Source of the DNA: Escherichia phage pEC-N1203-2Af.1
Sequence record: OQ540978.1
Length of the DNA: 64,000 nucleotides
Reading direction: 5' to 3' (one strand)
In this document: in pieces, positions 7,178 to 10,137 of the stretch
Layout of the letters: each line of letters begins with the position of its first letter
Position numbering within the stretch: position 1 is the stretch's first letter
Notes under the pieces: generated by a model
Told to the model about the DNA's origin: nothing
Seen by the model: the letters and a program-made list of their open reading frames with translations, nothing else
Databases searched by the model: none
Position numbers and translations under genes: made by a program

Positions 7178-7600
7178 ATGCCATTACCAGCTAGACACCA
7201 AAACCGTTTCTTAGTTCTCAAGTGGGATGATATCGAAATGAATCTCACTGAACATGAACTGGATTTGTTCCATGAGTTATTGTCAGAGATTCGCTCTGGT
7301 ATCCCTGATCGTCAGTATGTAGTTATCAGTGATAAACACCCTCAAGAGTTCGAAGAAGCTTGGGGCATGAAGCTGGCTTACATCCAGAGAGCTATCAGAG
7401 AAAGAGAAGAGGTTGCTAACCAAAGGGTTGTGGCTCATTTAGTACGAGAGCAACCTCGTGAAGCTAGGGCTAACCATGCACCACCTCCACCTACTCCTCG
7501 GATAGTTGTTAACGGGGCGGTTAGGGCTTACAGTTATGAAGCTACCGTGTTAGATGTGATAGAAGATAACCAAGCATTTACAGATTTACTTTACCAATAA
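7178..7600 (+). CDS. hypothetical protein
   Basis: 140-aa ORF. Confidence 0.45.
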   Translation: MPLPARHQNRFLVLKWDDIEMNLTEHELDLFHELLSEIRSGIPDRQYVVISDKHPQEFEEAWGMKLAYIQRAIREREEVANQRVVAHLVREQPREARANHAPPPPTPRIVVNGAVRAYSYEATVLDVIEDNQAFTDLLYQ

Positions 7601-7616
7601 TTTAAAGGAGTATAAA

Positions 7617-9308
7617 GTGAGCAACCCGGACGCTCTCCCATTTTTGACAGAGATGACTGTCGCTGATATAATCTCTAAGCAAGCGAAGCACGGAGTGAGT
7701 TTCAACCGAAGAAATGCTCGGTGGTATGTTCACCTCCTTAAAGAGATTATTGTTAATATTGACAAAGAACTGATTCCTCTCTTACCTAAGATGAGATTAG
7801 ATGGCTCTACTTATATGAAGCCATTTAAGAAGTCTGGAGCTTTACAGAAGTGGCCTCAAGCCTATTGTGATAGGGTTGGCCTTAAGAGGGAAGATATTGG
7901 TGGAGCATTCACCTGTGTTGAGTACGTAGACTTTGACCCATCGAAAGATGCACGAGTTAAAGAAGCCCTTATGGATGAGGGTTTTCTTCCTCCAGAGTTT
8001 AACGTATCAAAGAAACCTTGGAATACTTTTGAAATCAAGAAAGATATAAGAAAGTATGGAACATATCAAGCGTGGTATTCAGCTTGGATACAAGGTAATG
8101 CTAAAAAGAAACAGACAGCCGAGATGGTTGACGCTGATATTAGGAAGTTCTTAGAGAAGCATTTTCGGTTTAAAACTAAGAACTACATGAAGGCTTATGT
8201 ATTTGGTTTAGGTTTAAATCCTAACCGACGTAGACCTATCACTTTTGATGAGATTAAGATAGCACTAGCTACCTCAAACAAGTGGCCTACAGCTCCTACA
8301 AACCTCGAGGAGACTCTTGAAGAAGGATTAGGGGGTGAGCTAGGGAGTGTCGGAAGTTTGCTTAAGAGACGCGTTGTAGCGGCTCACAGGCTAGGTCTTA
8401 TTAGTGGACTTATAGCAAAGGAGCGCGAAGATGGTAAACTTTCGGCAGAAGCTAACAGCTGCGCTACGCCGACTTTTCGATTCAAACATCGTATCGTGGT
8501 TAATATTCCCTCCCGTGGTTTGTTTGGTCATGAGTGTCGCAGTTTGTTTGAATCTGACTGTAACTCAGATGATGATCACTCTCGTCCTTTCGTTATTACT
8601 AACGTTGTTCCTGATGGTTGTTATATACGAAAAGGTACTAACGTAATTTATGAGAAAGGTAAGCCGGGGAAGAAAGACAAACCTGTAGGTGCTTACAAAT
8701 ATTACATACCCGCTGGTAAAGAAGTATTCTTAGGGTATGATGGTTCTGGATTAGAATTGCGTATGCTTGCACACTACCTCATTAAAGAGTGTAGGGATAT
8801 GCTTGCTGAAGCAATCGAAGAGAATAATCCAGCTAAGAAAGCTCTGGCAGAGCGTGGTTTAGCTTCTGCTATTATGTATCGTGATATTCTCCTTGAAGGT
8901 GATATCCACTCCCACAACCAGAAACTTGCTGGTCTTCCTACTCGTGACAACGCTAAGACGTTTATCTACGCATTCAACTATGGTGCTGGTGATGCTAAGC
9001 TCGGTTCAATTGTAGGTGGTGGGGCTGACGAAGGTTCAGTGATGCGAGCACGTTTCTTGGCAGAGAACCCATGTATTGCAATCCTCATTGATCGTATGAC
9101 AGAGAAAGCTGCTCAAGGGTACTTGATTGGTGTTGATGGTCGTAAGATTACAATGAGACGAGATGCCACTGGTAAAGTTATGGTTCATAAAGCACTTAAC
9201 ACTCTCCTGCAATGTGCTGGTGCTGTTGTTATGAAATATGCTATGATGTTCCTTAACAAGTGGATTGAGAAGGATAGAGTTCGCTGTGCTAAGGTAATTG
9301 ACATGCAT
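7617..9308 (+). CDS. DNA polymerase, family A, exon 1 (ends inside motif C)
   Basis: GTG start after AAGGAG; motif A GYDGSGLELRMLAHY, motif B RDNAKTFIYAFNYGAG; frame continues ...VIDMH then runs into intron. Confidence 0.75.
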
Positions 9309-9915
9309 AAACTTCATTGTGCATGTAAAAGTTGGTGAACTCGGTGAAACCCGACCATTAAGTTGAGGGCAATACCGAGCTAAGCTATTAGGAGGTGATA
9401 TGGCTAAGAAAGATCTAGTGCTAGAAACAACTAGCACAGGATGTATCATCCCTATCTCACACAAATTAAATAAAGATGGCTACTTTCGAAAAGTGATAAA
9501 TGGCAAATGGGTCATGTATCATAGGTATGTCATGGAAGAGAAGTTTGGAAGTATTCCTGACGGCTACGAAGTTAATCACAAATGCAAGAATAGGGCATGT
9601 TGTAACACTGATCATCTAGAGATATTAGAAGGTAGTGCACATGCCATAGAATCAAATACTGGTAGAAACAGAGAAAGACAGGATGCTGCTAAAGAGTTCT
9701 GGCTTAATAATGAATGTACTGGTGTTGCTCTTGCAGAAAGATTTGGTGTGAGCTTTGGAATCGCTTGTAGATGGATTCGAAAGTGGAAAGTGTAGAGACT
9801 ATCCTGCGGGAGTAGGGGGTTAACAGGGAAACCCTCGAAGCGCCAACAACAGCAAATTAGCTATGCTGTTATGATATAGTCCGATACCCGAAGTAATTTG
9901 GGAATAACATAAATG
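9309..9915 (+). mobile_element. group I intron carrying an HNH homing endonuclease ORF
   Basis: Exon 1 ends in T; exon ATGCAT (9303-9308) can pair with intron GTGCAT (9319-9324) giving a U-G pair at the splice site; intron ends in G at 9915; joined exons read MHDEGQF. Confidence 0.7.
9400..9795 (+). CDS. HNH homing endonuclease (intron-encoded)
   Basis: GYEVNHKCKNRACCNTDHLE; lies wholly inside the proposed intron. Confidence 0.7.
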   Translation: MAKKDLVLETTSTGCIIPISHKLNKDGYFRKVINGKWVMYHRYVMEEKFGSIPDGYEVNHKCKNRACCNTDHLEILEGSAHAIESNTGRNRERQDAAKEFWLNNECTGVALAERFGVSFGIACRWIRKWKV

Positions 9916-10068
9916 GATGAGGGCCAGTTCTCAGTGAACCGTAACGATGTACAGAAACTCAAAGAACACACTGAGCTTTGCGTTAAGAAAGCTGGTGAGT
10001 ATTTGAACATGGAATGTCCTCTGGCCTCTGATTGTCAGATTGGACTTAACTGGATGCATACACACTAA
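9916..10068 (+). CDS. DNA polymerase, family A, exon 2 (C-terminus)
   Basis: DEGQF...CQIGLNWMHTH resembles the Pol I C-terminus (HDE ... G.NW..AH); no start codon of its own. Confidence 0.7.
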   Translation, partial: DEGQFSVNRNDVQKLKEHTELCVKKAGEYLNMECPLASDCQIGLNWMHTH

Positions 10069-10137
10069 ATTCAGAACTGAAAGATTGAAACACAAATGAA
10101 CTAGTCTTATTGATTAGTTCATAATAAGGAGATTGAA

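Follow-up and report, generated by a model that had tools for sequence, protein, structure and literature searches.

The closest described relatives of the element reported here are the introns of the T7-like phages ΦI and W31. According to PMC3428280 (after Bonocora & Shub 2004), these introns occupy site 881 of the Pol I gene, belong to subgroup IA2, lack P2, carry P7.1 and P7.2 helices joined by G-U-A, and house an HNH endonuclease in P6a (I-TslI in W31); the title of the original article (Bonocora & Shub 2004, J Bacteriol 186:8153, as listed in PMC3428280) describes them as self-splicing. Here, we analyse a 607-nucleotide (nt) insertion in the family A DNA polymerase gene of Escherichia phage pEC-N1203-2Af.1 (record OQ540978.1; the whole 64,000-nt stretch under study is referred to as the window), situated between the His and Asp codons of motif C (H-D-E). 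We consider it very probable that this insertion is a mobile group I intron of the ΦI/W31 (IA2) type, residing in a Kuravirus-like polymerase. The intron family and its site are already known, and the window represents a new host phage group for this family.

The window derives from a Kuravirus-like coliphage (Gordonclarkvirinae, phiEco32-type). Region 7600-10100 shares 98% identity with Escherichia phage PE006 and is matched by 117 phage records (the whole stretch is covered by only 10). The polymerases of Gordonclarkvirinae are polymerase-only proteins, with the exonucleases separately encoded (PMC9965538). In the window the gene spans 7617..10068 on the + strand, and three open reading frames (ORFs) are found along it. 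The frame from 7617 reads to ...AKVIDMH and, as recognised by the initial annotation, closes soon afterwards, reaching a TGA (9336-9338) after 10 further codons; unspliced, this frame (7617..9338) would give a 573-amino-acid (aa) product. The HNH ORF (9400..9795) begins with ATG and has AGGAGG ahead of it, while the third frame (9913..10068) appears in the ORF list as M-DEGQF...GLNWMHTH, 51 aa and ATG-initiated. The DEGQF...GLNWMHTH codons themselves take up 9916..10065, and the stop codon ends at 10068. Thus, the 51-codon downstream frame proposed earlier does resume with DEGQF at 9916, but it is not devoid of a start codon as had been stated, since an in-frame ATG (9913-9915) follows a TAA. 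The annotated polymerase start varies by record: EcoN5 and Bas94 use the equivalent of GTG 7617, PE006 and LAMP an ATG 12 codons downstream of it, at 7653 (MTVADII...).

Comparison with polymerase genes devoid of the intron, which the initial annotation had proposed as a check, fixes the insertion to the base. The alleles of EcoN5, and of Bas94 and LAMP (which lack the intron at the motif C site), align to 7600-9307 and 9916-10069 in two blocks that are one base apart, and GATATGCAC is directly followed by GATGAGGGC in them (...ATGCAC/GATGAG...), with zero extra bases, whereas the window reads GACATGCAT, 607 nt (9309..9915) and then GATGAGGGC. The boundaries set independently by these homologues coincide with those first deduced from the group I rules (exon 1 ending in T9308, a 607-nt insert ending in G9915). 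Removal of 9309..9915 yields a 614-aa polymerase that is collinear with the EcoN5 enzyme and reads VIDMHDEGQFSVNR across the junction (...VIDMH-DEGQF...). The Pfam DNA_pol_A profile (381 positions) matches exon 1 alone at positions 143-334 (50.9 bits) and the joined protein at positions 143-380 (82 bits). Against T7 DNA polymerase the joined protein aligns through the final residue, with GLNWMHTH on GPNWAICH and MHDE on VHDE, so the gene is broken between the His codon and that of the catalytic Asp in motif C, and the earlier claim that joining the frames would restore MHDE is confirmed. Judged from these alignments, the correct polymerase product is one 614-aa enzyme.

Used alone as a blastn query, the intron retrieved 63 phage records. 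Kuravirus-like copies are 85-100% identical to it, while those in gene 5 of T7-like phages (including K1F, 13a, Bas102, Sekstaphage-1, Yersinia WX1, Salmonella Sal_R1S and Aeromonas PT2) reach 65-70% over 83-99% of its length; copies were also retrieved from Klebsiella RCIP0053, Edwardsiella DT115P1 and Vibrio phage Vp_R1. Every copy with both splice sites readable interrupts H-D-E between its His and Asp codons (MH/DE in the window and Vp_R1, VH/DE in the T7-like copies), and the records of K1F, 13a and Bas102 already give the polymerase as a joined coding sequence (CDS) around the HNH gene. Homology at the DNA level settled the family membership of the intron. With the ΦI and W31 gene 5 introns, as described in PMC3428280, the window shares site 881, the ORF in P6a, the absence of P2 (P1 and P3 are spaced by 4 nt only), the P7.1-GUA-P7.2 arrangement, the U·G pair, the terminal G and the HNH class; as each of these features is present, the window holds a member of the ΦI/W31 family in a new host lineage, Gordonclarkvirinae. 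The T7-like copies in K1F, 13a, Bas102, Sekstaphage-1 and other Autographiviridae resemble it in sequence (65-70% over ~600 nt; HNH proteins 54-59% identical in aa), and all their helices can be aligned with those of the window. It differs from them, as from ΦI and W31, in a P5 loop of 14 nt instead of 5 nt (a 9-nt extension), a shortened P7.2, a guide re-tuned to ATGCAT instead of GTGCAT and a 3' end that reads AUG.

Covariance-model and comparative evidence both support a group I fold. With an E-value threshold on the local region, Rfam RF00028 was matched in two pieces, one at 9716-9903 (28.7 bits, E 3.4e-5), which includes the AGACUA and AUAUAGUC core motifs, and one at 9299-9511 (11 bits); the AUAUAGUC motif (part of 9841..9881) agrees with the Rfam consensus. 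The whole-window scan at gathering thresholds returned the tRNA only and did not find the intron. Covariation was assessed in 14 homologous sequences with the P6a loop removed, in a structural alignment of 70 pairs and 912 cells. The automatic MAFFT alignment of the ORF-deleted introns misplaced P8, P7.2 and P5 and was not used for the counts; hence, the structural alignment was arranged by hand, with gaps coded as N so that MAFFT retained the layout, and P3, P5, P6, P6a and P9 were cut at fixed lengths beside invariant anchors. Standard pairs made up 97.8% of the cells, and changes on both sides (compensatory) were recorded for 31 of the 70 pairs. On each of the five measures, all 500 shuffled controls stayed below the observed value, and displacing the 3' partners by 1-3 columns left pairing at 34-48%. 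Every window cell in the counted structure is a standard pair. The bulk of the signal comes from P3 (5/7 pairs compensatory, 100% of cells paired), P8 (7/7), P9 (4/6) and P6a (3/4), while P4, P7 and P7.1 are near-invariant (a single P4 pair varies, on one side). The P7.1 loop is variable (UGCG, UAAG, UUUG, GAAA) over a retained stem, P6 is CU/AG in the window versus CC/GG in the T7-like copies, and P6a becomes ACUG/CAGU in the Klebsiella and Edwardsiella copies. The group I reading of the initial annotation is thereby substantiated, P1, P10, P3-P9 and P7.1/P7.2 all being placed in canonical order; chance is excluded because the case is built on homology and covariation, and not on single-sequence pairings alone.

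The pairings that would define the splice sites behave likewise. The proposed complementarity between exon ATGCAT (9303-9308) and intron GTGCAT (9319-9324), 10 nt downstream, is present with U·G at the junction, and the helix extends to 8 bp. The junction U·G is found in 14/14 homologues. At exon position -6 the pair is A-U (exon ATGCAT) in the Kuravirus-like copies and Vp_R1, and G-C (exon GTGCAT) in the T7-like and other copies, so that 5 of the 14 sequences are altered on both sides: the guide sequence covaries with the host exon. In P10, 3/7 pairs are compensatory (91.8% of cells paired), and the changes follow the synonymous codons at the start of exon 2 (GAG, GAA; GAC in Vp_R1). The helices and the other features of the locus are collected in Table 1. 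The stop UGA of the exon-1 frame falls within the 5' strand of P3.

Table 1. Coordinates of the interrupted polymerase gene and of the structural elements of its intron in the window.
Feature	Position	Strand	Remarks
Exon 1, family A DNA polymerase	7617..9308	+	Last codons GAC ATG CAT (D M H); T9308 provides the U of the 5' splice site
Group I intron, IA2-type, 607 nt	9309..9915	+	Very probable; absent at the same bounds in EcoN5, Bas94 and LAMP; Rfam, homology, covariation
P1	9301-9308 with 9319-9326, loop 9309-9318	+	Exon ACAUGCAU : guide GUGCAUGU, 8 bp, U9308·G9319 at the cleavage site
P10	9312-9318 with 9916-9922	+	CUUCAUU : GAUGAGG, first 7 bases of exon 2
P3	9331-9337 with 9841-9847	+	GUUGGUG : CGCCAAC
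P4	9340-9345 with 9374-9379	+	Structural alignment
P5	9350-9352 with 9367-9369	+	Loop/extension 9353-9366, 14 nt
P6	9380-9381 with 9789-9790	+	CU : AG; internal loop AAG on the 5' side
P6a	9385-9388 with 9783-9786	+	CUAU : GUGG; loop 9389-9782 (394 nt) holds the ORF
HNH homing-endonuclease gene in P6a loop	9390..9795	+	Shine-Dalgarno AGGAGG 9390-9395, ATG 9400, stop UAG 9793-9795 in J6/7
P7	9797-9801 with 9877-9881	+	GACUA : UAGUC
P7.1 hairpin	9802-9811	+	UCC-UGCG-GGA
Linker GUA	9812-9814	+	Joins P7.1 to P7.2
P7.2 region	9815-9836	+	Pairing ambiguous in the Kuravirus-like lineage
P8 hairpin	9848-9870	+	AACAGCA...UGCUGUU
J8/7	9871-9876	+	Between P8 and the 3' strand of P7
P9 hairpin	9887-9902	+	CCCGAA-GUAA-UUUGGG; also forms in the local minimum-free-energy fold
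Final three bases of the intron, A-U-G	9913..9915	+	G9915 is the terminal (omega) G; in-frame ATG after TAA 9910-9912
Exon 2	9916..10068	+	DEGQF...GLNWMHTH (50 aa) and stop; motif C catalytic Asp and Glu, conserved C-terminus

The gene lodged in P6a encodes a 131-aa protein with a Pfam HNH_3 domain (residues 40-76, 44.9 bits against a cut-off of 24.8, E 8.6e-12), which bears out the earlier placing of an HNH ORF within the intervening sequence. The ORF is intact, its protein is 54-61% identical in aa to the intron ORFs of K1F, 13a, Bas102 and Vp_R1 (61% for Vp_R1), and its ...EVNHKCKNRACCNTDHLE... segment is kept in all the relatives compared. The final codons of the ORF (W-K-V) also form part of the 3' strands of P6a and P6, and its stop lies in J6/7; hence all the relatives end in ...WIR-x-WK-x, coding and ribozyme constraints being superimposed. 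Searched with phmmer, the PDB sequences yielded no meaningful match to the HNH protein, and neither tblastn of this protein nor a scan for the core motif revealed a second copy of the intron or the endonuclease in the window.

On this basis, we infer that the intron is self-splicing in this phage, along the following lines. The precursor mRNA would fold so that the guide (9319-9326) grips the end of exon 1 (P1, with U9308·G9319) and bases 9312-9318 grip the start of exon 2 (P10). An external guanosine would then attack after U9308, and the 3'-OH of exon 1 thus set free would attack after G9915, ligating ...CAU to GAU... and giving the one 614-aa polymerase. The intron gene, preceded by a strong Shine-Dalgarno, would supply an HNH endonuclease that, by analogy with its relatives, may cut or nick intron-less polymerase alleles of a co-infecting phage, and repair of the cut allele would copy the intron in (homing).

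The distribution of the intron bears on the last of these steps, as it is present in only ~8 distinct phages among the 117 matching records. In the comparison with PAS59, identity reaches 91.9% across the intron but drops to 77% and 71% in the neighbouring 300 nt of exon 1 and exon 2, respectively; with SU7, it is ~96% for the ribozyme parts, 79% for the ORF and 71-79% for the exons. The junction codon is CAT in all intron-containing alleles, which fits the need for a U at the splice site, and CAC in the three intron-less alleles read. The identity patterns, the patchy presence and the CAT/CAC split are indirect signs that are consistent with homing, short of proving it. Between PE006 and the window, exon 1 is 98.9%, the intron 100% and exon 2 (9916-10068) 90.8% identical; the divergence of exon 2 places a recombination boundary at or just past the 3' splice site.

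Several points weigh against interpreting the insertion as a working intron of this family. The case for splicing is drawn from DNA, and ΦI and W31 (AY769989, AY769990) entered the comparison through their published description only. The alignment was fitted by hand and the limits of P8 and P7.2 were picked by complementarity, which makes the pair counts lean towards the group I model; moreover, P7.2 cannot be unambiguously drawn in the near-identical Kuravirus-like copies. The Rfam/Infernal check suggested by the initial annotation turned out only partly as hoped for: the RF00028 match is significant, but its 28.7 bits fall short of the gathering score of 50. The low score arises because the 394-nt ORF loop splits the core, and since the annotated K1F and Vp_R1 copies also score low (35.7 and 34.9 bits), the shortfall is a property of this ORF-bearing family and not of the window; the gathering cut-off is a classifier setting and no defining property of group I introns. 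Finally, a formal route to the separate translation of exon 2 leads from ATG 9913, which is in frame and has a weak GGGA 9 nt ahead of it.

This route is what the alternative named in the initial annotation would depend on, a split polymerase made without any splicing, in which the 573-aa protein and a separately initiated 51-aa peptide (9913..10068) assemble non-covalently and the insert is a lodged endonuclease gene only. The ATG stands directly after the in-frame TAA, it is retained in all Kuravirus-like copies (and occurs as the terminal triplet in Edwardsiella DT115P1 and in IMG/VR loci L026, L028, L034 and L042), and the GenBank records of PE006, SU7 and ECBP2 carry exon 2 as a separate CDS, to which the SU7 record adds a ribosome binding site. 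These annotations, however, come with no experimental evidence in the records, and gene callers list exon 2 as its own CDS because the intron ends in an in-frame AUG. The GGGA is the 3' strand of the P9 stem. Nor is the ATG kept across the intron family: the terminal triplet is AAG in most T7-like copies (K1F, 13a, Bas102 and Sekstaphage-1 among them) and TAG in Klebsiella RCIP0053, which leaves exon 2 without a start there (UUG also occurs). Selection could account for the recurrence of the AUG ending, but so could a trivial A/U polymorphism at position -2. A split would part the His from the catalytic Asp of motif C, whose essential role is established for family A polymerases, and it leaves unexplained the covariation of 31 helix pairs, the guide sequence and P10; we rate it as most improbable. 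There is a slim chance that the gene works both ways, with unspliced or 3'-hydrolysed RNA giving, from this AUG, a 51-aa peptide that complements the 573-aa protein; if so, the dual mode would be a safeguard where a ribozyme sits in an essential catalytic motif.

Very unlikely, too, is a decayed intron that keeps the group I look while its self-splicing is no longer efficient, either needing a host or phage factor or sitting in a gene that is becoming a pseudogene. The short and ambiguous P7.2, the P5 extended relative to the T7-like copies and an Rfam score below that of K1F (28.7 + 11 bits in two pieces versus 35.7 in one) could be read this way. Yet, all core helices are intact in the window and the HNH ORF shows no decay; furthermore, the ribozyme parts are more conserved with SU7 than the exons are (96% versus 71-79%), which implies purifying selection on the RNA. 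The carriers PE006, SU7, ECBP2, PAS59, FH3 and 1-6af were isolated as plaque-forming phages, and the region holds no other copy of the polymerase. Inteins, and free-standing genes that break up their host genes, are further vehicles of homing endonucleases (PMC2677866), and an intein or a bare endonuclease gene devoid of RNA function was considered as well. It was rejected as next to impossible: the polymerase frame closes after 10 codons (9336-9338), the Pfam search of the insert found no intein domain (HNH_3 only), and the non-coding flanks of the ORF are its most conserved and most strongly covarying parts.

The group I intron at motif C may be set against its counterparts in other phages. 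Vp_R1 (Grimontviridae), whose polymerase is of a Kuravirus-related type with separate exonucleases (PMC9965538), has the same site (MMH/DEF) and the same intron and HNH family, but its P3, P8 and P9 sequences all differ and its 3' tail is longer; in its record exon 1 is annotated as the polymerase and exon 2 is unannotated. The introns of SPO1, SP82, Bastille and Pf-WMP3 (with I-HmuI, I-HmuII, I-BasI and I-PfoP3I) are likewise group I elements with HNH nicking endonucleases in phage family A polymerase genes, though they belong to another intron lineage and are inserted at site 674 in the fingers (676 in phiL7; PMC3428280). The motif B introns of LAMP and Bas94 share the host gene, the phage group and the group I class, and are annotated as joins; however, they lie ~330 nt upstream, at two different Tyr codons, and the window has neither. 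The LAMP intron (locus L005, 2871-3134; RF00028 100.8 bits) has no ORF and interrupts the second Tyr codon of motif B (FIYAFN-Y-G), while that of Bas94 (locus L004, 2854-3522) carries an endonuclease VII-type ORF (43.3 bits) and interrupts the first, 12 nt upstream of the LAMP site. The corresponding empty sites of the window are at ~8967-8981. With these, the number of intron sites in the Kuravirus-like polymerase gene rises to at least three.

No paper on introns of phiEco32-like, Kuravirus or Gordonclarkvirinae phages came up in our searches, and the group review (PMC9965538) mentions no intron. In the records of PE006, SU7, ECBP2, PAS59, FH3 and 1-6af the polymerase is broken up into two or three CDSs presented as unrelated, which would affect polymerase-based gene counts, core genomes and the phylogeny of Gordonclarkvirinae. 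One intron and endonuclease unit is present at the identical His/Asp site in three lineages (Autographiviridae, the Kuravirus-like phages and Vp_R1), with the guide re-tuned to the codons of each host; it would thus be a homing element for which an invariant catalytic motif serves as the landing pad in distant phages. Endonucleases of this kind can serve as weapons when phages co-infect a cell (PMC3428280, citing Goodrich-Blair & Shub 1996; PMC11620839), which is of relevance to phage cocktails that mix intron-plus and intron-minus relatives. The understanding of how group I introns function is unchanged by the finding.

Two minor observations complete the survey. Five IMG/VR loci (L025, L027, L036, L037 and L043) have the exact J6/7-P7-P7.1-GUA core, with no motif C GAYGA after P9; they probably represent related introns that lie elsewhere, in another gene or at another site. 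The window also encodes a single tRNA-Arg (anticodon TCT) at 58867-58941 (+), which scored 57 bits in Rfam and on which ARAGORN concurs.

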